Positions 2,968-57,188 of a DNA stretch of 64,000 nt are shown here, in pieces. The translations under genes and the position numbers were made by a program. The notes under the pieces are model-generated. The model was not told where the DNA came from and searched no databases. It worked only from the letters and a program-made list of their open reading frames with translations. The stretch's first letter is position 1; every line of letters begins with the position of its first letter. Source of the DNA: Octopus vulgaris (lineage: Eukaryota); contig OX597828.1 in assembly GCA_951406725.2 (NCBI GenBank), forward strand, positions 59,458,001-59,522,000. Reading direction: 5' to 3'.

Positions 2968-2975
2968 TATCTATC

Positions 2976-3070
<95 letters not shown>
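2968..3070. repeat. (TATC)n array, 5' flank of Tx1 copy A
   Basis: Tetranucleotide array directly abutting the element 5' end. Confidence 0.98.
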
Positions 3071-3071
<1 letters not shown>

Positions 3072-3396
3072 GACAGACGTATTGTCACATCGGCTCCGAA
3101 GGTAATCGTTTATTTTGATATTTATAGCCCATATTGTGTGTACATTTTTGTAAATAAGGTGTGTAAGGCACCCAACTTTCGTTTGAGTGCTTTTCCAAGG
3201 GAGGAATTCGCCCCTAGGGGCAGTTTCAAACCTATTTAATTTGCGTATTTTTCTTCTCGACATTAAAAAATGTCGAGAAATGTTATTGTAGAACGCTGGT
3301 CCTGTTCCTTTATGGACCAGCATTTTCCTAGACTTGAAACGCTAGGAGAAAAAAAGAACTTATGCACGCACACACATTCGACAAAGACAAACCTGA

Positions 3397-5202
3397 GTGA
3401 ACGCTGCAACCACTTGCGGTAACAGCCCTGTCACCACCACCACCACCACTAACAACAACAACAACGAGACTACTACTGCTACCACCACCACCTCCACCAC
3501 CACCACCACCACCACCACCACCACCACCACCACCACCACCAACATAAATGATAAAAATGAAACTCACGCGAATACTATTAACAAAAACAACAGCAAAAAG
3601 CAGAACAACAACAAAAATGAAATAAATATTTTACCATCTAATAGTGAAGATATTAATATAAAAGAATCAACAGCACCAGTAAATTTCGCTGACACTCTGC
3701 GTCAGAAAAAAGAAATAATAAAATTTACGAATGAAGAGTTGATAGAAACGAGAGCACTCTCTACAACCCAAGGACAGGATTTAGTGCTGCATACACCTGA
3801 ACACATAAAGGAACAAATAGAAAATAAGACAATTATATATAAAATTATAAGAAAAAACAAAACACAAAATGAATTGATTACAAAAACGGACATAGAAAAG
3901 TATTTAAAAAACATAATGAAAAAAAAGAATATATAAACTGGGGTCCCCAGTTTAATACAGTGGTGGTCCGCTTCCCTAACCAGGAAGTGGCAAAAGCTCA
4001 CTCTACTGAGTCTTTGCAAAATGATGAAATCATCATGGTCCCATATTACAAAGGCCAGATAGTGAGTACAATTAGCATTAAAAATGTACCCCCCGAGATA
4101 CCTAACAAATGGATAACAGGAGCGATCTGTTACCATTTGAAAACGATAAACATATTAGAAATTGGGGTGGTAAAACAATAGTAGTGACCATCCAGATTGA
4201 TGGGTCCTCTATCGAGAACCTACCTGATAGGATCCATTTAGAAAATGGGCAAAGTCTATATGTTGTAGCAGAAGGCAAAAAGCCAAGATGCTACAACTGT
4301 GGCAGCCCAGAACATTTAATTGCAAAGTGCGCACTGACACAGAAAAAACAAGAAAGAACAAATCAGAAAACAAATAAAAAACCTTTTTTGCCAACACCAA
4401 CACACTCAATTATGGAACAATGCCAAGAAAAACAACAAACCAGCAAACAAACTCCAACAACATCACCAAGATAAGAAACAGCACCAACACAATCACCGTT
4501 GACGTCGCAACCAATTCAACATACTGAACCAACAAAAGATAGACCAACACCAACACCGAGGACGACAACTAAAAAGACAGAAAACAGTGATTTGAAGACA
4601 AATTCTACCCCTAACACCACAACAATACAAACACCGCACAAAAGATCAACAATTTCTACAAGCATACATATTAACGCAAATGCTTTGCCTTTACCCCCTT
4701 ATGATTCGTCGGACTCATCGTCTAACGACGAAAGTTCAACGGAATGGCAAATAGCCACAGGGGGTAAAAGGAAAATATAAAAACGCCCACCAAACAAGTA
4801 AGTAAAGAAGGGAGATATTTAACTCCAGACAGCTTCCCCCTAGACAATCAAAAAATCAATGAACCTGCAAAACCACACACACAACTAACTGCAATAGACA
4901 CAGACAATAAAAAACTAATGGATTACATTACATCCAACACGAACATCTGTGAAGATGACTTTAAGACAAATAATCATCCGCGCAATACACCACCGAAACA
5001 CATAAGAATTGTACACATAACACAAACACAACACCATACACTGAAAACCATATTTCCAAATGCGGTAGGGGGGTTTCAACGATACGTCTCAAAAAAACTA
5101 TACAAACACCTCCACAAAGACACTACAAAAGAAGAAGAAAAAACTGAAACTTCGAAATGGGTAAGTGACCTTCCCTCTTGCCTCTTGTCTCTTCCAATGT
5201 AG
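3397..5202 (+). pseudogene. Tx1 ORF1 (gag-like nucleic-acid-binding protein), frameshifted
   Basis: Pieces in several frames: poly-Thr/Asn N-terminus, VVRFPNQEVAK segment, zinc knuckle CYNCGSPEHLIAKC (C-X2-C-X4-H-X4-C) and a Thr/Pro-rich region. Confidence 0.85.
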
Positions 5203-5234
5203 TGTGTGAAACACAAATTTCTTAAACGTCAATT

Positions 5235-7112
5235 ATGCTTAAATTAGGTTGTGTGAATGCGCGTGGCATGGCGTCGGCTTGGAAACAAGGTTACCTTCTA
5301 AACGACATCAAGTCACTGAACGTGGATATAGTAGCTACCAGTGAAACCAGACTCAGCAAGCCGCGGGCCCTCGCGTCCATGTTTGGCGATCAATTCGACA
5401 TTTATTTTTCTCCCTGTCTGCCGAACATGGGTGGTGGTGGTACCGCGGTGCTTTTTCGAAGGAGTCTAAATGTAAAAGTAAGAACAATATTCCTAGACTC
5501 GGCGGGTAGGCTGGTTGTCTTGGACGTGGATGGCAGAAATGGGTGTGCATTCCGTCTGATGGCAGTTTATGCACCGTCCTTAACGGGTCGGGCGGATTTC
5601 TTCAGACGTCTAGTGGTTTTCCTGGCGCTTCTGTATATATTGACTCTCGAACCGCTACTGCGGAAGCTGGCGACACTGAGGGGCATCCCACGGGAACTGG
5701 GTTGCGGGACGAGCGTGTCGGCATATGCGGACGATGTCACCGTCATAGTGTCGAGTGAAAAACACATCCAGATGATAGGCGAGACACTAAGAAAATACGA
5801 AACGGTGACGGGAGCGAAGATTAACCCAGAAAAGTCAGTGGGTTTGCTACTCGGCACCTGGAGAAGCAAGCCCATGCCGTCCGACTGCGGCTCAGTAGTG
5901 GGACGCTGGACGGACGGACCGGTTAAATTGCTCGGGGTGTGGTTCAGTCCGGACCTCCAAATGGATAAGAACTGGGACGAGATCACGAGTAGAGTGGTCG
6001 CTCTCAGCCAAACATGGGCCGAGAGAAAGCTGTCTCTAAAAGGTCGGGCGGAGGTGGCGAACGCGTACATCTCATCCGTCATCGATTACCGCCTGACCGT
6101 CGTGCCTTGTCCCGACGCCACCATCACCAAACTGGAGCGCATACTCTTCCGCTTCCTGTGGAAGGGTGGCGTTCCGATGGTGAGGAAGTCCATTTGCTGT
6201 CATCATCCGTTGAAAGGAGGACTGGGCATGCCGTGGTTGATGATGCGCAGGCATTCGCTGAGACTGCGACATCTCTGGAACTTCATCGATGACGGTGAAC
6301 AGGTGTGGGCGCCGTTTGTGAGGCGCGCCTTCCCGCAGCTCGTCTCACTGACCGAACTGCAAACGTGGATCAAGAAGAGACCGAAACTGGGTGATTGGCA
6401 CCGAGAGTGTCACCAAGCTCTACAGCAGCTCTGCCGACCGGGGTCAAACTTGTGCAACTTACAAACGACTAAAGCGTTCTATAGGGGACTAGTGGAGGGG
6501 AGGTCCGACGACACACTCGGGGCAAACCTGGGCGTCGACGAGAAATTCCTAACCCGCCTGTTCAGGACGACGTTCGGGCCGGGGCCTATGGATTACTTCC
6601 AGAAATCCCTGGCTTGGCAATGCTATCGAGACGCACTACCTGTTCGAGAGAAGAGCTACAGGCACGGACCGAAAACCATCACCGGACCGACCTACCCGAT
6701 ATGCGGTCAGAGCGACGAAACCGTTCTGCACGCACTCGTGCAGTGTCCAGATATTTCAGAGCTATGGACCTTCGTCGAACAGCTGTTGTCGCGTGTAGGA
6801 CGGGCCGGCTTATCGGCCGAGTCTATCGTGAATATTGTTCCACCACCTTCCTTTAAACGGAAAGGAAAAACGGTTTTCGTTACGCTGATGGGTATGGCGA
6901 AAGAATGTGTGTGGTGGACGCGTTTGAAATGACTGCAAACAAACACCTTCCTCTCTGGTCAGTCTCTCGTCAACTTTTTCAAGTACCACTTGAAAAGGAG
7001 GATGAGAATAGAGAGGAAGGCTTTGTCGAACGAATGTTTTAATAAAAAGTGGGTAAAAGTGGCATAAATGGTCAGTTTGAAACACGGCACTATTTTAAGC
7101 ATAAATCTGTAA
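5235..7112 (+). pseudogene. Tx1 ORF2 (partial APE endonuclease fused to partial RT), premature stop at 6930-6932
   Basis: APE motifs (VNARG, SET, GGGTAVL, GRLVVLD, VYAP) jump directly to RT LLYILTLEPLL, YADDV, GAKINPEKS, LLGV, LSLKGR, GGLG and ET..H...C. The stop TGA is GGA in copy B, and the frame continues through one more stop to TAA at 7110-7112. Confidence 0.9.
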
Positions 7113-7396
7113 CCAAAAGAGACAACAAGAAGTAAGTCACCTTACTCATGTGTTCATTTTCGAACTGTCTGAGGTGACCTTGGTCTTTTTTATAGGTTTT
7201 TCTTTCCAAGGCTACACCTAAACTGGGAACTTTATATGTATATATTGCTTTTTATACACCACACAACCCACAGATCCCTATTGATCGAACGTTTTTTCTT
7301 TGTGTGTCCCACCCATCCCACCTCGAAAAGAAAAAACTCTACATTGTATTTCGTCCATTTTTCTTCTGTGTTTAGCCCTGTGGCCACAATAAAAAG

Positions 7397-7397
<1 letters not shown>

Positions 7398-7474
<77 letters not shown>

Positions 7475-7539
7475 CTCTATCTCTCTCTCTATCTCTATAT
7501 CTATATCTATATCTATATCTATCTATCTATCTATCTATC

Positions 7540-7610
<71 letters not shown>

Positions 7611-23438: not shown

Positions 23439-23439
<1 letters not shown>

Positions 23440-23510
<71 letters not shown>
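23440..23510. repeat. (TATC)n array, 5' flank of Tx1 copy B
   Basis: Perfect array abutting the element start. Confidence 0.98.
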
Positions 23511-23511
<1 letters not shown>

Positions 23512-24062
23512 GACTGACGTGTTGTCACATCGGCTCCGAAGGTAATCGTTTATTTTCACTATTTATAGCCCACATTTTGTGTACATTTTTGTAAATAAGG
23601 TGTATAAAGCACCCAACTTTCGTTTGAGTGCTTTTCCAAGGGAGGAATTCGCCCCTAGGGGCAGTTTCAACCCTAATTAAATTGTATATTTTTCTTCTCG
23701 ACATTAAAAAATGTTGAGAAATTTTATTGTCGAACGCTGGTCAAATTCCTTCATGGACCAGCATTTCGCTAGCCTTGAAACGCTAGGAGAAAAAAAGAAC
23801 ACCTGCACGCACACACATTCGAATAGAAAAGACATGACCAGCAAGACATCAAAGACAAACCTGAGTGACGTGGAAGTGAACGCTGCAACCATTTTCGTTA
23901 ACAGCCCTGTCACCACCACCACCACCAACGACAACAACAACGAGACTACCACTGCTACCACCACCACCAACATAAATGATAAAAATGGAACTGACGCAAA
24001 CACCATTAACAACAACAACAAGAATAACAACAACAAAAATGAAATAAATATTTTATCATCCA

Positions 24063-24591
24063 CTAGCAGTATCGCCCGGCGTTGCTCGGGTTTGTAAGGG
24101 AAATAACTATATAAGCATTTTTAGAGAGTTATAGCAAAAAAATGCATTAAAAATGGAATAAAAAATGATGATAATTTTTTTTTAAATCGTTGACTCAGTG
24201 TCTTCAAGCCATGAAGTCGTTTTTCTAAAAGAACGCTGGTCTCCTTGACAACGCTTTACGACGTTGATTTCCTTACACTCCCTTCCCCACAGCTTCACGA
24301 GGGAGGGAAGAGGGGGGAGAAGCAAACAGGTGCAGGCGTGAGCGTGGACGCCAACTCCGCCGCCATCGACACGAAAAAATGTGCATTAAAATGGAATAAA
24401 AAATGATGTTAAATTATTTTTAAAATCGTAGACTCATCGTAGACGCGCGCTAATACTCAGACGGGCTCGATATGAATCACGACTATAAGATACCCGAATT
24501 TGGTTAAACTGCACCGCAAAATGTGGGAGTAGTTAGGAATCTAAATCGAAGGGGACAGACACTCACACAACTACAGTTTTATATATATAGA
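24063..24591 (-). mobile_element. Non-autonomous Helitron inserted in ORF1 of Tx1 copy B
   Basis: Minus strand starts A|TCTATATATATAAAA and ends with a GC hairpin (CCCGAGCAACGCCGGG) then CTAG|T. It is inserted between A and T without a TSD and is absent from copy A at about 3640. Confidence 0.88.
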
Positions 24592-25956
24592 TTAGCGAAA
24601 ATAATTTTAACATAACAGAAACAGCAGTACCTGAAAAGCCACGTCCAAGAATATTTCGGATACAACAACAACAAAAACACACAACGACAACAACTGCCAG
24701 AATAGAACAGTGAATTTCGCTGACACCCTGCGTCAGAAAAAAGAAATAATAAAATTTACAAATAAAGAGTTGATAGAAACGAGAGCACTCTTTTCAACAT
24801 CAGGGCAGGATTTAGTATTGCATACACCTCAACACATAAAGGAACAAGTAGAAAAGAAAACGATTATTTATAAAATTATTAAAAAAAACCAAAAAACAAA
24901 ATGAACAGAAAACAAAAACGGACATAGAAAAGTGCGCAAAAAACATCATGAAAAAAAAGAATATATAAACTGGGGTCCCCAGATTAATACAATGGTGGTC
25001 TGCTTCCCTAACCAGGAAGTGGCAAAAGCTCACTCTACGGAGACTTTACAAAATGATGAAATCATCATGATTCCGTATTACAAAGGACAAAAAGTGAGCA
25101 AAATTAGAATTAAAAATGTCCAAACAGATATACTACCCAAATGGATAACATCGGCGATATGTTACCATTTAAAAACGATAAATATATTAGAAATCGCCGT
25201 GTACAAAAATGACAATTGGGGTGGTAAATCGATAGATGTTACCTTCGAGATTGATGGGTCCTCTATCGAGAACCTACCTGATTGGATTCATTTAGAAAAT
25301 GGGCAAAGCCTATATGTTGTAGCAGAAGGCAAAAAACCAAAATGCTACAACTGTGGCAGCCCAGAACACTTAATTGCAAAGTGCGTTCTAGGAGAGAAAA
25401 AACAACAAGAAAGAACAAATCAGAAAACAAATAAAAACCCTTGTTACCAACACTAACACCAACACCACACTCAATTATGGAACAATGCCAAGAAAAACAA
25501 CAAACCAGCAAACAAACCCCAACAACATCACCAAGATAAGAAACAGCACCAACATCCCCTTAGACAATCAAAAAATCAATGACCCCGTATAACCACACAC
25601 ACAACTAACAGCAATAGACACAGAGAATAAAAAACTAATGGATTACATTACATCCAACACGAACATCTGTGAAGATGACTTTAAGACAAATAATCATCCG
25701 CGCAATACACCACCGAAACACATAAGAATTGTACACATAACATAAACACAACACCATACACTGAAAACCATATTTCCAAATGCGGTAGGTGGGGTTTCAA
25801 AGATGCCTATCAAAAAAACTATTTAAACACCTCCACAAAGACACTACAAAAGAAGAAGAAAAAACTGAAACTTTCGAAATGAGTAAGTAACCTTCCCTCT
25901 TGCCTCTTGTCTCTTCCAATGTAGTGTGTGAAACACAAATTTCTTAAACGTCAATT

Positions 25957-27732
25957 ATGCTTAAATTAGGTTGTGTGAATGCGCGTGGCTTGGCGTCGGC
26001 TTGGAAACAAGGTTACCTTCTAAACGACATCAAGTCACTGAACGTGGATATAGTAGCTATCAGTGAAACCAGACTCAGCAAGCCGCGGGCCCTCGCGTCC
26101 ATGTTTGGCGATCAATTCGACATTTATTTTTCTCCCTGTCTGCCGAACATGGGTGGTGGTGGTACCGCGGTGCTTTTTCGAAGGAGTCTAAATGTAAAAG
26201 TAAGAACAATATTCCTAGACCCGGCGGGTAGGCTGGTTGTCTTGGACGTGGATGGCAGAAATGGGTGTGCATTCCGTCTGATGGCAGTTTATGCACCGTC
26301 CTTAACGGGTCAGGCGGATTTCTTCAGACGTCTAGTGGTTTTCCTGGCGCTTCTGTATATATTGACTCTCGAGCCGCTACTGCGGAAGCTGGCGACACTG
26401 AGGGGCATCCCACGGGAACTGGGTTGCGGGACGAGCGTGTCGGCATATGCGGACGATGTCACCGTCATAGTGTCGAGCGAAAAACACATCCAGATGATAG
26501 GCGAGACACTAAGAAAATACGAAACGGTGACGGGAGCGAAGATTAACCCGGAAAAGTCAGTGGGTTTGCTACGCGGCACCTGGAGAAGCAAGCCCATGCC
26601 GTCCGACTGCGGCTCAGTAGTGGGACGCTGGACGGACGGACCGGTTAAATTGCTCGGGGTGTGGTTCAGTCCGGACCTCCAAATGGATAAGAACTGGGAC
26701 GAGATCACGAGTAGAGTGGTCGCTCTCAGCCAAATATGGGCCGAGAGAAAGCTGTCTCTAAAAGGTCGGGCGGAGGTGGCGAACGCGTACATCTCATCCG
26801 TCATCGATTACCGCCTGACCGTCGTGCCTTGTCCCGACGCCACCATCACCAAACTGGAACACATAATCTTCCGCTTCCTGTGGAAGGGTGACGTTCCGAT
26901 GGTGAGGAAGTCCATTTGCTGTCAACATCCGTTGAATGGAGGACTGGGCATGCCGTGGTTGATGATGCACAGGCATTCGCTGAGACTGCGACATCTCTGG
27001 AACTTCATCGATGACGGTGAACAGGTGTGGGCGCCGTTTGTGAGGTGCACCTTCCCGCAGCTCGTCTCACTGACCGAACTGCAAACGTGGATCAAGAAGA
27101 GACCGAAACTGGGCGATTGGCACCGAGAGTGTCGCCAAGCTCTACAGCAACTCTGCCGACCGGGGTCAAACTTGTGCAACTTACACACGACTAAAGCGTT
27201 CTATAGAGGACTAGTGGAGGGGAGGTCCGACGACACACTCGGGGCAAACCTGGGTGTCGACGAGAAATTCCTAACTCGCCTGCTCAGGACGACGTTCGGG
27301 CCGGGGCCTATGGATTACTTCCAGAAATCCCTGGCTTGGCAATGCTATCGAGACGCACTACTTGTTCGAGAGAAGAGCTACAGGCATGGTTCGAAAACCA
27401 TCACCGGACCGACCTACTCGAGATGCGGTCAGAGCGACGAAACCGTTCTGCACGCGCTCGTGCAGTGTCCAGATATTTCAGAGCTATGGACCTTCGTCGA
27501 ACAGCTGTTGTCGCGTGTAGGACGGGCCGGCTTATCGGCCGAGTCTATCGTGAATATTGTTCCACCACCTTCCTTTAAACGGGAAGGGAAAACGATTTTC
27601 GTTACGCTGATGGCTATGGCGAAAGAATGTGTGTGGTGGACGCGTTTGAAAGGACTGCAAACAAACACCTTCCTCTCTGGTCAGTCTCAGGATGAGAATA
27701 GAGAGGAAGGCTTTGTCGAACGAATGTTTTAA
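25957..27732 (+). CDS. Tx1 ORF2 derivative, 591 aa (truncated APE fused in frame to C-terminal RT)
   Basis: Same motifs as copy A. Open until a ~32-bp deletion near 27688 shifts the last codons; the ancestral stop is at 27800-27802. Confidence 0.85.
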   Translation: MLKLGCVNARGLASAWKQGYLLNDIKSLNVDIVAISETRLSKPRALASMFGDQFDIYFSPCLPNMGGGGTAVLFRRSLNVKVRTIFLDPAGRLVVLDVDGRNGCAFRLMAVYAPSLTGQADFFRRLVVFLALLYILTLEPLLRKLATLRGIPRELGCGTSVSAYADDVTVIVSSEKHIQMIGETLRKYETVTGAKINPEKSVGLLRGTWRSKPMPSDCGSVVGRWTDGPVKLLGVWFSPDLQMDKNWDEITSRVVALSQIWAERKLSLKGRAEVANAYISSVIDYRLTVVPCPDATITKLEHIIFRFLWKGDVPMVRKSICCQHPLNGGLGMPWLMMHRHSLRLRHLWNFIDDGEQVWAPFVRCTFPQLVSLTELQTWIKKRPKLGDWHRECRQALQQLCRPGSNLCNLHTTKAFYRGLVEGRSDDTLGANLGVDEKFLTRLLRTTFGPGPMDYFQKSLAWQCYRDALLVREKSYRHGSKTITGPTYSRCGQSDETVLHALVQCPDISELWTFVEQLLSRVGRAGLSAESIVNIVPPPSFKREGKTIFVTLMAMAKECVWWTRLKGLQTNTFLSGQSQDENREEGFVERMF

Positions 27733-28089
27733 TAAAAAGTGGGTAAAAGTGGCAAAACTGGTTAGTATGAAAGACGACACTATTTCAAGCGTAAATCTGT
27801 AACCAAAAGAGACAATGAGAGGTAAGGTGACTTACTCATGTGTTCATTTTCGAACTGTCTGGGGTGACCTTGGTCTTTTTTGTAGGTTTTTCTTTCCAAG
27901 GCTACACCTAAACTGTGAACTTTATATATATATATTGCTTTTTTATACACCACACAACCCACAGATCCCTATTGATCGAACGTTTTTTCTTTCTGTGTCC
28001 CACCCATCCCACCTCGAAAAGAAAAAAACTCTACATTGTATTTCGTCCATTTTTCTTCTGTGTTTAGCCCTGTGGCCACAATAAAAAGT

Positions 28090-28143
28090 TATCTATCTAT
28101 GTATCTATGTATCTATGTATCTATGTATCTATCTATCTATCTT

Positions 28144-28189
<46 letters not shown>

Positions 28190-28190
28190 A

Positions 28191-28239
<49 letters not shown>

Positions 28240-28308
28240 CCTATCTATCTACCTATCTATCAATCTATCTATCTATCTGTATGTCTGTCTGTCTGTCTAT
28301 CTGTCTGG

Positions 28309-28378
<70 letters not shown>

Positions 28379-28431
28379 GTCTGTCTGTCTGTGTGTATGT
28401 CTGTCTGTCTATCTGTCTGTCTGTCTTTCTG

Positions 28432-28462
<31 letters not shown>

Positions 28463-28739
28463 GTCTGTCTGTCTGTCTGTCTATCTGTCTGTATGTCTGT
28501 CTGTCTATCTGTCTGTCTATCTATCTGTCTATCTATCTATCTATCTATCTTTTTTTTTTTTAACACCCCCTCTTTTTTTTGTCCTCTTTCTCTTCTTTTA
28601 CGATCCCTTTTGATCGACCCCCCCCCCTTTTTTTACCTTCAAAAGAAAAGCTCTACCTTGTAATTTGTTCTATCTGTGTGCAGCCCTGTGTGGCTAATAA
28701 AGAAACATATCTATCTATCTAGCTATCTATCTATCTGTA

Positions 28740-35100: not shown

Positions 35101-35647
35101 CTGTGTGTGTGTGTGTCAACACATCCTTGCATTTTCTATTATATATATATATATATATATATATAATTTACAAAATAAGGGCAAAAGAAAAATTCTAATG
35201 CCAAATATGCCGAAAAACAGACAAAAATTGTCAATAACCATTATAATTCGGCATATTTGGCATTAGAATTTTTCTTTTGCCCTTATTTTGTAAATTATTT
35301 ATGAATTTAACCTTTAAAGGTATTTTTTGATATGCTGGCCATTGATAAAAATTTTTTCTCGAAAACAATTTTATCCTACATTAGTTATAAATTGAATAGT
35401 ATTCACTTCCGGATTCACTCACTCTGTGAAAGCGTCCTCGAAGCGTGGTGTTATTTTGAGTGCGAATCACATCTGTAAGTAACTGTTTAGCTTTGAATTG
35501 TTGAAAATTGTTGTTTTGTATTGATTGAACTTCAAACGTCTGTTTCATAACAGAAAAAATATTGTTATTCCCCTCCGTTAGGAGGGGAAAAGTGCTACAC
35601 TTTGTCACATACACAAGAAATATTATAAATTCGTGAAAAAAAAAAGG

Positions 35648-37218
35648 ATGAACAAAGAAGACATGTTGTCGTCTTCAAAAATGTTTGAAGTGGAAACTCT
35701 GTCAGCTTCATCAGATAAAGGTTCGCCTTCATTTGAAGGTGTTGAAGGTTCGACTTCATTTGAAGTTATTGAAGGTTCGCCTTCTAAAGGAAAAAATGTT
35801 AAAAATTTGACAAAAAAAGAAAATGAACAAGCTAAACAAGAAGATTCGTTGAAAACCAAAGCATACAACTTCGCAGCTGCGGCTGGGCCGAAGACTGAAG
35901 AAATAAAAATAGACGATACAGAGTATATGAAATATAAAGATATGTTTACAAGGGAGGGAAATGATGTAAAAGCCACCCTCCCAGAAGAAATCAATCAGAA
36001 AGAAAACCCAAAAGAGGATAATAGTATATAAGTCCTTTTTAATAAAAGAAAAGAAAATTGAGAAGGTGACTAAAGAGCAGGCAGAGAAGTGCCTACAGCT
36101 CATATGGGATGATATCGATTATGTGACAAGAGGAAAAAAATACGCCACGATAGTGGTATACTTCAAGAATGAACACATGGCGAAGACCCACTCGTTAAGC
36201 CCTATTAAAACGAACGAAATAATTCTGTTACCTTCCTATTTGGGGCGGAGGACCGCCAAATTAAGAATAGAAGAATTACCTGCGGAAATCGAGGTAAAAT
36301 GGTTGCTTCCAGCCTTACTGATGGGGCTGGAAGAAAAAATAAGTATTATTGACGTAACAAAAATTCGGAAGGAAAACTGGCGAGGACAGAGTCTGCAAGT
36401 AACCATACAGGCGGCCCCAGAAACACTGGAGGAGGTCGCCGGGAACATAAACTTTAGCGAAGAGATAAAATTGCGGGTGGTGGTGGAGGGACGAAAGCCC
36501 CGATGCTATGGATGCGGAGAGAAGGGACACATCCGTGTAGACTGCCCCACCCGCAAGAAAGAAGAGGATAAAAGGAAGACGGAAGCGGAGGAGAAAAGGC
36601 GAAAGGAGACGGAGGAGGAAAAAAGCAGCAAAAGAACACAGAAGAAGAAAATGCCTTTACTCTGGTTAGACAGAGGAAGACCCCAAAAAGGAAGAACGAA
36701 GACTCGAACCAACCCACCCCAAGCACAAACCAAAAAAAGTAATAATGACAATACAGCAAACACACAGGGGGGAAAATCTACCCCACCCAACCACGGTTCG
36801 CCACAAAAAGGAAAAAAAAGTGAAGACCCCCCCAGCCCATCCCGAACAACCACCCCACCCCCACCCCTCAGTGCCGAACAATTCCCTCCCCTCCCAGACT
36901 CCACCCCACCGTCCACCCCATCACCCCTACAAAGCCCAGGAAAGGAAATTAAGGAATTGGAGATGGTGTACGTCGCTATTAACAAGGAAAACGATAGGTT
37001 GGTAAAATTCATAAATGACACACCAACAGCAACAAAAACACAGACACAGGGTATTACCCAAAAATGTAGACGTGTATAAAATCGATATGATGAATATGAA
37101 TATTATTCGTGATGAATACCCAAGGGACTATTTTGGTCCTCGTCTCGACCTTCATGAGTCGTTATTCAAGGCGGACTTTGCCCCACGACCAACGGGAAAA
37201 ATCAAGAAAACCGATTAA
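35648..37218 (+). pseudogene. Tx1 copy C ORF1, frameshifted
   Basis: Consecutive ORFs 35633-36031, 36066-37079 and 37015-37218, with VVVEGRKPRCYGCGEKGHIRVDC and a Pro-rich region. Confidence 0.85.
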
Positions 37219-37227
37219 AGATAGGTG

Positions 37228-38856
37228 ATGTCTCATATTCATGTAGGGTGCATAAATGTGCGTGGCCTGATGTCGAACTGGAAGCAAGGGCGCTTCCTAA
37301 ATGACATCAGGTCACGGGATTTAGATGTTGTTGTTGCCACAGAAACCTGGTTAAAGGGGCCAAGAGATCCTCTCCCGCTGTTCGGCGGTTACGAGAGAAT
37401 TATCTCTCCGAGCCGTCCGTCCGGCGGAAGTGGGGTGTTGGTCCTATGCAAAAAGAACCGGGTTTCTGAGAAAAAGTTGATTTTTTCAGATCCAGAAGGT
37501 AGACTGGTCGTCGTTGATTTGACGTTCAGTAGTTGTAAGGCAATCAGACTGGTTGCGGTTTACGCACCCCACAATTCAGGGGAACAAAGAGACGGTGACA
37601 GGAGCAAAAGTTAATCGCGAAAAGTCAGTCGGCTTGCAACTCGGCACCTGGAGAGGCAAGTCGATGCCTCCAGACAGCGTCGTGGGACGTTGGACGGAGG
37701 GTCCGATTAAGTTGCTCGGGGTTTGGTTCGGACCAGACCTCCAAATAGAGAAGAACTGGAGCGAGGTATCGAGCAGGGTAATCCAAATAGCCAAGACCTG
37801 GTCTTGGCGGTGGTTATCCCTGAAAGGTAGGGCGGAGGTAGCCAATGTGTTTATTGCATCGGTGATCACCTACCGCCTTGCCGTCGTGCCTTGCCCGGAC
37901 TCGTGGTTGACCAAGTTGGAAAGATTTTTGTGGAAGAGCTCAAAACCACTTGTGAGACGCTCTGTTTGTTGTCAACAACCGTTAAAGGGTGGACTAGGGA
38001 TGCCGTGGCTAATGATGCGTAGAAATGCGCTGAGGTTAAGGCATCAGTGGCTCCACCTGGATGGTGAACGGGTGTGGTCTCCGTTGGCGATACAGATGTT
38101 TCCCAAGTTCACCAGTTTTGGTGGTCGGGAAGACTGGTATAATCGTTGATCGAAGGTGGGTACATGGTACACGGAGTGTCGCAAGGCACTTGACTATTTC
38201 GTCGCTCGGTCAATGCCTGCAGCAGTGGTTCTACCGCTGTTTTCTATAGAGGGTTTCTATAGAGGGCGGTTGCGATGATACGTTAGGGGAGACCCCTAGG
38301 TTTCGACGATAATCAGCTGGCCAGACTGTTCCAACGTACATTTGGGCCGAGGACCCTGGATAATTTTCAGAAGTCCTTGGCATGGCAGTGTTACCGAGGA
38401 ACCTTACCTGTTCGGAATAAACTCTCAAGGCACGGAGGCCAAGACAGCCCGACCTGTCCGAGGTGTGAGCGAGACAGGGAAACCGTCTCGCACGCGATCG
38501 TGCAGTGTTCGGAGGTGTCGGACATGTGGGTTTTTGCCGAACGACTGTTGTCAAGTGGAGGAGGAGTACAGCTATCGACAGAATCCATTGTAAAAATCGA
38601 CCCGCCGGATTTCTTAACGAAAGAAGGTAAGAATTGTTTTCTCTCAGTGGTTGCAACTGCGAAACAGGTAGTATGCAAGACAAGGATGAAAAGGGGTGAC
38701 AACAGGCAACTTCATCTCTGGTCCTAGTCTGGTGGTATATTTTAGATTCCACCTAAAAAGACAAATAGAGCTAGAGAGGAGGTGCCTGAGTAAGAAAGAG
38801 TTTGATGAAAGAAAGAATGTCGTGAATAAAAGGACCCTCATGAATGCAAGATAAGC
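37228..38856 (+). pseudogene. Tx1 copy C ORF2, deleted and frameshifted
   Basis: INVRG, TET, GRLVVVD and VYAP followed directly by ETVTGAKVNREKS (no YADD), then LSLKGR, GGLG and CPRC..ET..H....C. Confidence 0.88.
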
Positions 38857-39500
38857 CAAAAAAGAAAAAAAGGAAAAAACCCAAGGTCAGTGTCGTGGCG
38901 GGGCTCGTGGGGTCCGTAATCCCGCCCCACTCCATCTGTGAAATTGTCCTATGCAGTGTCTTATCATCCGTAATCTATAACCATGTATAAATTTTAACAG
39001 ACCCCATACGCATGTTTAATGTCAAATCATAGGTGATTGTTCCGTTTTCTTTCTTTATGGTGAATAAAGAAAAATCTCTCACTCTGTGAAAGTTTCTAGT
39101 TCGAATCACACGTGTCTCGAGATGTGCCGAAGTTTTTCTATTTTGGATATATTTGGGGTACTTAGGTTTTCTCAGGACTTAGTGCTTGCTTTTTCCATGG
39201 GTATGAGTAAGTATTTCACTTATATCCCATGTATTTATCACTGAAGAGGAGAAAATTATTATGAAATTGGGACCAATACGGTAATAACGGAGTTTTTAGA
39301 AATTTCTATCGGTTTGTTTCGAGACGCATAAATTATAATGGTTATTGACAATTTTTGTCTTTTTTTCGGCATATTTGGCATTAGAATTTTTCTTTTGCCC
39401 TTATTTTGTAAATTATTTATGAATTTAACCTTTAAAGGTATTTTTTGATATGCTGGCCACTGATAAAATTTTTTTCCCGAAAAAAATTTTATCCTACATT

Positions 39501-39576
<76 letters not shown>

Positions 39577-52044: not shown

Positions 52045-52433
52045 CATAATTATTTATGTTATATAATATTATGTTATGTTGTATAAATAAATTATTGGAT
52101 TGTCAATAGTATATCTCTATATTTAATATATATATATATATATAGATATATATATATACAAAATTTAAAGGACTGAACACGAAAAGTGGACAGTCAACAT
52201 GCTAGATATAGACGTCAAATCGCTATTTTCCACAAAGAGTATGTTCTCTCTTTATTTGAGAACATACTCTTTGTGGAAAATAGTGATTTGACGTCTATAT
52301 CTAGCATGTTGACTGTCCACTTTTCGTGTTCAGTCCTTTAAATTTTGTATGTAAAAATATTTTAATCTTTGGATTCTTTTTAATATGTTGGGCCACTGGT
52401 TTTAATTGACTAATATCAATTTCTACCCTTATT

Positions 52434-52466
<33 letters not shown>

Positions 52467-52551
52467 AAATTAAATATAGAGATATACTATTGACAATCCA
52501 ATAATTTATTTATATAACATAAAATAATATTATATAACATAAATAATTATG
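52041..52551. repeat. Nested inverted repeats (near-perfect ~92-bp-arm hairpin inside an ~85-bp-arm inverted pair)
   Basis: 52156-52248 pairs with 52258-52350 (about 9-nt loop), and 52041-52128 pairs with about 52468-52551. Confidence 0.9.
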
Positions 52552-54015: not shown

Positions 54016-54879
54016 GTATATTAGATATTCTTGTAAGTGTGGTGGTACCCTTGCACCCTGAATGTATATCAGATATTCTTGTAAGTGTGGTGGTACCCTT
54101 GCACCCTGAATGTATATTAGATATTCTTGTAAGTGTGGTGGTACCCTTGCATCCTGAATGTATATTAGATATTCTTGTAAGTGTGGTGGTACCCTTGCAC
54201 CCTGAATGTATATTAGATATTCTTGTAAGTGTGGTGGTACCCTTGCACCCTGAATGTCTATTAGATATTGTTGTAAGTGTGGTGGTACCCTTGCACCCTG
54301 AATGTATATTAGATATTGTTGTAAGTGTGGTGGTACCCTTGCACCCTGAATGTATATTAGATATTCTTGTAAGTGTGGTGGTACACTTGCACCCTGAATG
54401 TATATTAGATATTCTTGTAAGTGTGGTGGTACCCTTGCACCCTGAATGTATATTAGATATTTTTGTAAGTGTGGTGGTACCCTTGCACCCTGAATGTATA
54501 TTAGATATTGTTGTAAGTGTGGTGGTACCCTTGCACCCTGAATGTATATTAGATATTGTTGTAAGTGTGGTGGTACCCTTGCACCCTGAATGTATATTAG
54601 ATATTCTTGTATGTGTGGTGGTACCCTTGCACCCTGAATGTATATTAGATATTGTTGTAAGTGTGGTGGTACCCTTGCACCCTGAATGTATATTAGATAT
54701 TGTTGTAAGTGTGGTGGTACCCTCGCACCCTGAATGTATATTAGATATTGTTGTAAGTGTGGTGGTACCCTTGCACCCTGAATGTATATTAGATATTCTT
54801 GTAAGTGTGGTGGTACCCTTGCACCCTGAATGTATATTAGATATTGTTGTAAGTGTGGTGGTACCCTTGCACCCTGAAT
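54016..54879. repeat. 48-bp minisatellite, ~18 copies
   Basis: Unit GTATATTAGATATT(C/G)TTGTAAGTGTGGTGGTACCCTTGCACCCTGAAT, head-to-tail with no spacers. Confidence 0.98.
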
Positions 54880-56687: not shown

Positions 56688-57173
56688 TATTTCTTTATTG
56701 CCCGCAAGGGGCTAAACATAGAGAGGACAAACAAGGACAGACAAACGGATTAAGTCGATTATATCGACTGAAGTGCGCAACTGGTACTTATTTAATCGAC
56801 ACCGAAAGGATGAAGGACAAAGTTGACCTCGGCGGAATCTGAATATAGAACGTAACGGCAGACGAAATACCGCTCAGCATTTCGCCAGGCGTGCTAACAA
56901 TTCCTCTAGCTCGCTGCCTTTAAAAATAGACAGGCGAAATACCTATTTTTTTACTACCCACAAGGGACCAAACACAGATAGGACAAACAAGGACAGACAA
57001 ACGGATTAAGTCGATTGTATCGACCTCAGTGCGTAACTGGTAGTTATTTAATCGACCCCGAAAGGGTGAAAGGCAAAATTGACCTCGGTGGAATTTGAAC
57101 TCAGAACGTAACGGTAGACGAAATTCCGCTAAGCATTTCACCCGGCGTGCTAATGTTTCTGCCAGCTCGCCGC
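56688..57173 (-). mobile_element. Head-to-tail SINE dimer (GGCGAGCTGGCAGAA family) with Tx1-like tails and one 17-bp TSD
   Basis: Two monomers at about 56688-56919 and 56944-57173. CTTTATATCACATTTGT is repeated at 56671-56687 and 57174-57190. Confidence 0.88.
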
Positions 57174-57188
57174 CTTTATATCACATTT

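Follow-up and report, generated by a model that had tools for sequence, protein, structure and literature searches.

Two copies of a Tx1-like LINE, A and B, lie about 20.7 kb apart on the + strand of the window, by which we mean the whole 64,000-nt stretch of Octopus vulgaris DNA that was analysed (contig OX597828.1, positions 59,458,001 to 59,522,000), and both carry the same in-frame deletion in ORF2. The preferred reading, at a probability of about 0.5, is that gene conversion or gap repair let a deleted copy overwrite the 3' half of a neighbour belonging to another subfamily. This weight and those given in words for the other readings are judgements and were not computed. Conversion accounts by one event for the mosaic structure of the pair, the 20.7-kb distance and the decay that preceded the split of the two copies.

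Copy A (3072..7397, +) and copy B (23512..28089, +) are elements of 4.0-4.3 kb that belong to the same family, B having another type of ORF1. Both ends are kept in both copies, as the preliminary description had supposed, and at the borders of (TATC)n arrays every terminal base of A is the same as in B. The array 5' of A (2968..3071, +; 26 units by TRF) is its likely target site, and a corresponding array lies 5' of B (23439..23511, +), while tail or target arrays follow A at 7398..7598 (+) and B at 28090..28550 (+). In the small sample of this one window, (TATC)n adjoins both of the 2 5' ends and all 3 of the related 3' ends, in one orientation. A short, 5'-truncated 3' end of a related family (28551..28707, +) is stacked behind the tail of B and is followed by its own TATC array, which shows stacking inside the target repeat. 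Its local alignment with the 3' UTR of A scored 72, against a mean of 27 and a maximum of 46 in 500 shuffles. The sequences around A and B are unrelated, and the two copies occupy separate sites. Simple segmental duplication or unequal crossover is excluded by these unrelated flanks, and unequal crossover with duplication of the spacer was rejected because the flanks have a single 20-nt match in common. Only 0.45 of the 31-mers of A are shared with B, so lineage cannot be read from the word share.

The ORF2 remnant of A (5235..7112, +) joins 130 N-terminal endonuclease codons to the tail of the RT, in which YADD is kept, followed by the thumb/wrist and the zinc finger. The remnant of B occupies 25957..27732 (+). 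Pfam Exo_endo_phos, RVT_1 and zf-RVT were detected on the ORF2 remnant with scores near or below their cut-offs. Tx1 ORF1 carries a CCHC knuckle, and such a motif lies near 4290-4335 in the ORF1 of A; Pfam zf-CCHC was assigned to the matching stretch of B with an E-value of 4e-4 (20.7 bits, where the cut-off is 20.8), and in copy C, a further element of the window, with an E-value of 2e-4. The homologue search with ORF1 gave no matches. Judged from these sequences, the parent of A and B has the marks of an L1/Tx1-type LINE, with APE endonuclease, RT, zinc finger and an upstream CCHC ORF1. The narrower Tx1-like label is a putative one drawn from target preference and layout, and the Tx1 name is borne by none of the ORF2 relatives looked up.

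The deletion junction, TTCCTGG joined to CGCTT, is identical in the two copies and follows position 5625 in A and position 26347 in B. A 20-mer across it occurs at exactly two sites when both strands of the window are searched. Codon 131 begins at 5625, the frame is kept through the junction, and the ORF2 of A is colinear with that of B and free of gaps for 1695 nt. Compared with the closest full-length relatives, 522 residues (P0043, with 69% identity over the RT part) and 521 residues (P0254 of Argonauta hians, 59%) are missing, corresponding to about 1.57 kb. The identical in-frame junction first noted from the letters alone is thereby borne out, at a loss of about 521 ORF2 codons. Among 254 proteins compared, all 44 that matched both junction sides hold 454-546 residues between them, and a fused short ORF2 was found in 0 of these 44. 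Two database proteins that are 62% like the ORF2 of A and B (P0021 and P0040) are filed as Herbaspirillum sp. on a 1.8-kb contig, and they are probably animal DNA in a bacterial bin.

The best match of P0043 among solved structures was human L1 ORF2p (E 1e-50). On this alignment, with L1 residue positions counted by hand, the deleted span includes the positions aligned to L1 D145, N147, D205, H230 and D600, which we take to be catalytic residues. With their counterparts lost, the ORF2 product would be unable to nick DNA or to reverse-transcribe, and the earlier idea of a catalytically dead ORF2, with endonuclease and RT catalytic residues inside the deletion, appears sound. The reading frame is uninterrupted over 565 codons of A and 591 of B; stops follow at codons 566 and 611 of A (6930 and 7065), and a 32-nt frameshifting deletion lies near 27688 in B, close to the end of ORF2. 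The fused frame of about 626 codons that had been described is present as a fusion, but its length was a composite, given the stops in A and the 32-nt deletion in B.

Divergence between A and B was 12.0% (87/724) for the ORF1 core, against 7.2% for the 5' UTR region, 4.3% for the 3' UTR and 2.2% for ORF2 to codon 565. A single-breakpoint likelihood fit placed the change within 4398..4913 (+), the copies being 10.2% apart upstream and 2.9% downstream. This interval forms the 5' boundary of a high-identity tract, whose 3' side merges into the shared TATC tail. ORF1 had a dS of 0.32 and a dN/dS of 0.29 over 234 codons, indicating purifying selection, whereas the dS of ORF2 was 0.03 (synonymous contrast between the two, P 2e-13). 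On this evidence the ORF1s parted in working lineages about 10 times longer ago than the ORF2 remnants. At a rate of 0.0036 substitutions per site per My, borrowed from O. bimaculoides (PMC13282606), the rough ages are about 44 My for the ORF1 split and 3-4.5 My for the ORF2 split. A single master had been proposed for A and B; since only the 3' halves have a recent common ancestor, one master, which would give equal ages along the element, is unable to explain both copies. The proposed deleted common source survives for the 3' halves, which go back to a single deleted template. Whatever model of common descent is chosen, recombination must have joined one deleted 3' half to two different 5' halves. 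A divergent patch at 7065..7141 (+), spanning the end of ORF2 and the start of the 3' UTR, holds 15 A/B differences in 77 nt (P 1e-10 at 2.2%), with surroundings 2-3% divergent. Related runs agree with B at 4 of the 4 sites listed. The patch is a clustered change or a further sequence exchange, perhaps a short stretch of A that underwent conversion a second time.

Neither ORF1 is intact, contrary to what had been described. In A (3361..5234, +, approximate limits), damage consists of a frame break at 3919-3927, a 22-nt deletion after 4159 and later stops. In B, it consists of an insertion of about 530 nt, a 1-nt insertion, a frame break at the A run and a 345-nt deletion in the tail that is private to this copy. 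The larger insertion is foreign sequence (24062..24592, +, right end approximate); it is single copy within the window, and its ends presumably resemble those of non-autonomous Helitron-type elements. Both copies read ATG, eight A and G at the same place (3916-3927 in A and 24948-24959 in B), which gives a -1 break of ORF1, although the ORF1s are dS 0.32 apart and purifying selection is seen on both sides of the break. A small GC-rich inverted repeat lies about 10 nt after the A run. Candidate explanations for this run are a programmed -1 frameshift, a homopolymer assembly error and repeated slippage.

Decay common to both copies was found in the ORF2 remnant. Tyr487 replaces the first Cys of the C-terminal zinc finger (6693..6695, +, in A; 27415-27417, +, in B), and a Cys codon at this site accounts for 98.8, 99.6 and 99.3% of depth in three related-genome DNA runs, which agrees with the earlier remark that A and B depart here from a Cys found elsewhere. 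At the 90 columns that do not vary among 11 relatives, 4 departures are common to A and B, with 1 more in A alone and 3 in B alone. The shared ones are Gly238Ser, Asn454Tyr and Cys487Tyr, plus a doubtful one at 480 beside an insertion. Leave-one-out controls with six close relatives gave 0, 1, 0, 0, 0 and 5 departures. Shared departures at invariant residues suggest that the deleted template was probably decaying before A and B split. The 40 letters listed from a table of 125 are divided evenly, 20 being private to A and 20 common to A and B. Of the 20 listed common letters, 12 hardly occur in the three DNA runs; 5 of these are synonymous and 7 are not, a split that neutral decay would allow (P 0.29), and some of the letters may be subfamily differences.

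Under gene conversion, two subfamilies of a (TATC)n-targeting family would have inserted 20.7 kb apart in the same orientation, and one copy would have taken a one-off 1.57-kb deletion at a 2-nt microhomology, in frame by chance. This copy would then have acquired Cys487Tyr, Gly238Ser and Asn454Tyr. A break in the 3' half or the TATC tail of the other copy may have been repaired off the deleted neighbour, with 2.5-3 kb copied from the ORF1 tail through the 3' end, and both copies would have decayed neutrally since, for roughly 3-4.5 My at the borrowed Octopus rate. Conversion between TE copies increases with proximity (PMC8230782, PMC6598467), and for a dispersed family to yield between one and eight pairs this close in 2.8 Gb, the genome size of O. 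vulgaris, it would have to number about 300-1000 copies. One-off deletions are common in the family, with 145 joints in related genomes and a separate deletion in copy C. Local gene conversion was the contrary case that the preliminary description had itself named, and it suits the mosaic at least equally well.

Several points weigh against conversion. The tract is long (at least 2.1 kb and up to 3 kb) and probably crosses a length difference of 1.57 kb, which is a weak point. By analogy with Alu, for which elevated conversion is reported within about 10 kb (PMC8230782, PMC6598467), the 20.7 kb between the copies would be another. All three copies in the window that have 5' ends bear endonuclease-to-RT deletions, from two independent events, whereas joints that start in the endonuclease are rare among those listed from related runs; this contrast hints at propagating deleted forms. 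It is also mildly unlikely that an in-frame junction with 565 open codons arose by chance. Template switching during reverse transcription yields the same one-sided mosaic.

Copy C (35433..39077, +) belongs to another L1/Tx1-type family, has a 15-bp target duplication (35418, 39078) and is about 70% identical to A and B. It has its own out-of-frame endonuclease-to-RT deletion near 37590, with YADD also lost; the deleted part extends from just after the endonuclease YAP motif to beyond YADD and, judged from the reading frames, possibly lies at a 5-nt microhomology. Copy C was considered as a full-length reference and rejected, being deleted too. The preliminary description had set the Tyr of A and B against the Cys of copy C: the Tyr is confirmed, but C is a weak comparator because it is of another family and has a different deletion of its own. 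The element in which copy C is nested (35152-35392 and 39331-39510) resembles a DNA transposon or MITE, having inverted arms of 97 nt (95%) and a direct repeat of 146 nt (96%). DNA transposons are targets of some Tx1 families (PMC4494074).

Four of 24 related sequencing runs were compared, the best match reaching 0.51 of words, with no RNA run among those listed. The 145 joints were found on the 1.9-kb ORF2 stretch in these four runs. Each of the 15 joints listed is carried by one contig per run; its depth is 15-156, where the summed depths are 10^4-10^6. All three DNA runs contain 14 of these joints, and the listed joints are probably single-locus deletions. Among the 15, a single joint starts in the endonuclease part, as does 1 of the 12 listed with inserted letters. 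Pieces spanning the A/B junction numbered 0 among the 32 listed, with 23,593 further pieces. Two letters common to A and B had depths of 0, 0 and 0 (site 6764) and 0, 0 and 33 (site 5461) in the three DNA runs. Letters private to A at 5338 and 6668 also had zero depth in related runs, so these runs lack locus A and are of little use for judging the source genome. Scans of collections of genome, metagenome and viral contigs gave no confirmed locus, and an exact 25-mer across the junction had 0 matches among the genome and viral contigs; as the collections are prokaryotic or viral, these negatives carry no information on the host genome. In O. vulgaris itself, 80 families of L1-Tx1 elements together cover 56 Mb, and 421 recent insertions are assigned to 13 families (PMC13282606).

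The strongest alternative, held tentatively and below conversion, keeps the mobilisation in trans that the preliminary description had proposed. A HAL1-like non-autonomous lineage, founded by a deleted master and moved by full-length Tx1-like helpers, would have acquired its 5' half (5' UTR and ORF1) at least once from another subfamily, through template switching or recombination; as in HAL1, ORF1 would be retained and ORF2 would be a passenger. The exact 5' and 3' ends within TATC arrays and the unrelated flanks of both copies speak for such a lineage, as do ORF1 lines under purifying selection, full-length helpers in related genomes (two contigs and P0254), copy C as a second deleted element with both ends, and the ORF1-keeping non-autonomous LINEs already described (PMC5786205). 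It would need a high copy number for a pair 20.7 kb apart, plus extra recombination, and ORF1 is broken in A and B. Deletion derivatives of non-LTR elements are called rare (PMC3414825), and the junction is absent from the 32 listed pieces, with the letters common to A and B near zero depth, but in runs that lack locus A. The fuller version, in which a (TATC)n-targeting Tx1-derived octopod lineage with a dead ORF2 of half length spreads in trans and renews its 5' UTR and ORF1 from autonomous subfamilies, we regard as rather unlikely, and copy C is a possible second lineage of this kind.

It is improbable that the same deletion arose twice from autonomous RNAs, through splicing or a hot breakpoint. 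The junction itself (5624..5626, +) contains GG at 5624-5625, which fits either side. One contig of run X10 follows 5414-5625 and then departs, and two related-genome contigs arrive from the RT motif QGCPLS and join at 5624; in these contigs, the compatibility of GG with both sides amounts to a 2-nt microhomology. The RT side is pyrimidine-rich just before the junction, which would suit splicing, and spliced L1 insertions are known (PMC5860796). However, the acceptor position reads GG and not AG in the two RT-side contigs, which are only about 88% like A, so that the true source may differ. A reused breakpoint is favoured by another single-copy joint with the same left base, although this joint also lacks AG. 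Moreover, Gly238Ser, Asn454Tyr and Cys487Tyr, common to A and B, could hardly have come from two autonomous sources. The second joint, a 279-nt in-frame connection of 5625 to 5905 at single-contig depth in three related DNA runs, is the sole one beginning in the endonuclease part among the 15 listed, and it reflects either a reused left breakpoint or a side effect of a window that lacks the middle part.

Selection on the fused frame, for a regulatory or dominant-negative protein or for protection of the RNA from decay, is very improbable. In its favour are the in-frame junction, the 565 codons open in both copies and an uncorrected dN/dS (NG86) of 0.58 for the whole ORF2 and 0.48 for the RT/C part (Fisher P 0.04). 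The 37 A/B differences in the 1695 nt comprise 28 transitions and 9 transversions, and 13 are synonymous, against 11.3 expected in a neutral simulation with the 28:9 transition bias (P 0.32). In the RT/C part, 13 of 33 are synonymous against 10.0 simulated (P 0.17), and NG86 dN/dS was accordingly rejected as a signal of selection after this transition-aware simulation. None of the 4 differences in the endonuclease part is synonymous, invariant residues are altered jointly and singly in A and B, and the C-terminus is broken separately in each copy. The chance of 565 codons staying open is P 0.14-0.26 for 37-55 substitutions, and an in-frame junction is a 1 in 3 event; the junction had been singled out for being in frame, and the deletion of copy C is out of frame. 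The function proposed earlier for the retained frame thus finds no footing: the dN/dS check suggested with it, carried out between the deleted copies A and B, shows neutral divergence, and the separate C-terminal breaks and the altered invariant residues point the same way. No protein function is implied for the fused frame under either main reading. Least probable of all is a collapsed or chimeric assembly that placed one deleted sequence at two loci: the A run in both ORF1s is one base short, a typical long-read error, but the 37 scattered ORF2 differences (28 of them transitions) and private indels argue against collapse, which would leave the copies identical.

Three further repeats were noted in the window. 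A 48-nt unit is repeated 18 times at 54016-54879 with 97% matches and several open frames, and is probably a young minisatellite. A MITE-like 114-nt inverted repeat (52045-52158 and 52438-52551), 95.6% identical, encloses a 280-nt core. A unit of about 256 nt occurs in two tandem copies, 85% identical, at 56688-57178.

If conversion applies, the pair is a clean case of a kilobase-scale tract moving a large deletion from one LINE to its neighbour, and it cautions against taking one junction with different flanks in two copies as proof of propagation. If instead the deleted form was dispersed, the Tx1 group joins the few LINE clades with ORF1-keeping non-autonomous derivatives, cis preference in the A/B family would be weak, and ORF1 modules would be exchanged between parasite and helper. 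A functional fusion protein is supported by neither main reading.

In the literature searched, neither this octopod element nor a Tx1-derived derivative that keeps ORF1 was found in titles and the starts of abstracts; Repbase and the Zenodo library of PMC13282606, outside that search, may contain the family. The part of PMC5786205 consulted on ORF1-present non-autonomous LINEs gave no Tx1-derived example. Among Tx1 LINEs that target microsatellites, Kibi inserts in (TC)n, Koshi in (TTC)n and crocodilian Tx1 in (TTCC)n or (TTTC)n (PMC4494074). A and B resemble them in having two ORFs, APE, RT and zf-RVT domains and ends in a simple repeat, and differ in the (TATC)n target and the internally deleted ORF2. 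HAL1, HeT-A and Ag-Sponge are non-autonomous LINEs with ORF1 present (PMC5786205), and like A and B they have both ends, an ORF1 and an ORF2 dead by internal deletion. Unlike that group, A and B keep about half of ORF2 in frame and have a broken ORF1, and they are two nearby copies in a 64-kb window with 5' and 3' halves of different age. Of the features that define HAL1, A and B thus show kept termini and a dead ORF2, but neither an intact ORF1 nor descent as a whole unit. R2 SIDEs and the Bov-A, Vingi and RIME derivatives are likewise internal deletions of non-LTR elements with the ends kept (PMC3414825, PMC4494074, PMC5786205), although these derivatives, of demonstrated multi-copy status, are short and for the most part lack coding sequence, and A and B measure 4.0-4.3 kb. 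SpIREs (PMC5860796) also have an identical internal deletion in separate copies; for A and B, the related contigs examined, about 88% like A, have no AG at the acceptor position, and the deletion lies in ORF2 and not in the 5' UTR/ORF1. Non-allelic gene conversion between TEs offers hybrids of two subfamilies with a nearby homologous donor (PMC8230782, PMC6598467), and A and B show its hallmark, a high-identity tract bounded by older divergence within unrelated flanks. The scale differs, with a tract of 2-3 kb, a 1.57-kb deletion and 20.7 kb between the copies, against cases in those sources that are Alu-sized and mostly less than 10 kb apart. Under either main reading, the feature shared by A and B is a known kind of event.
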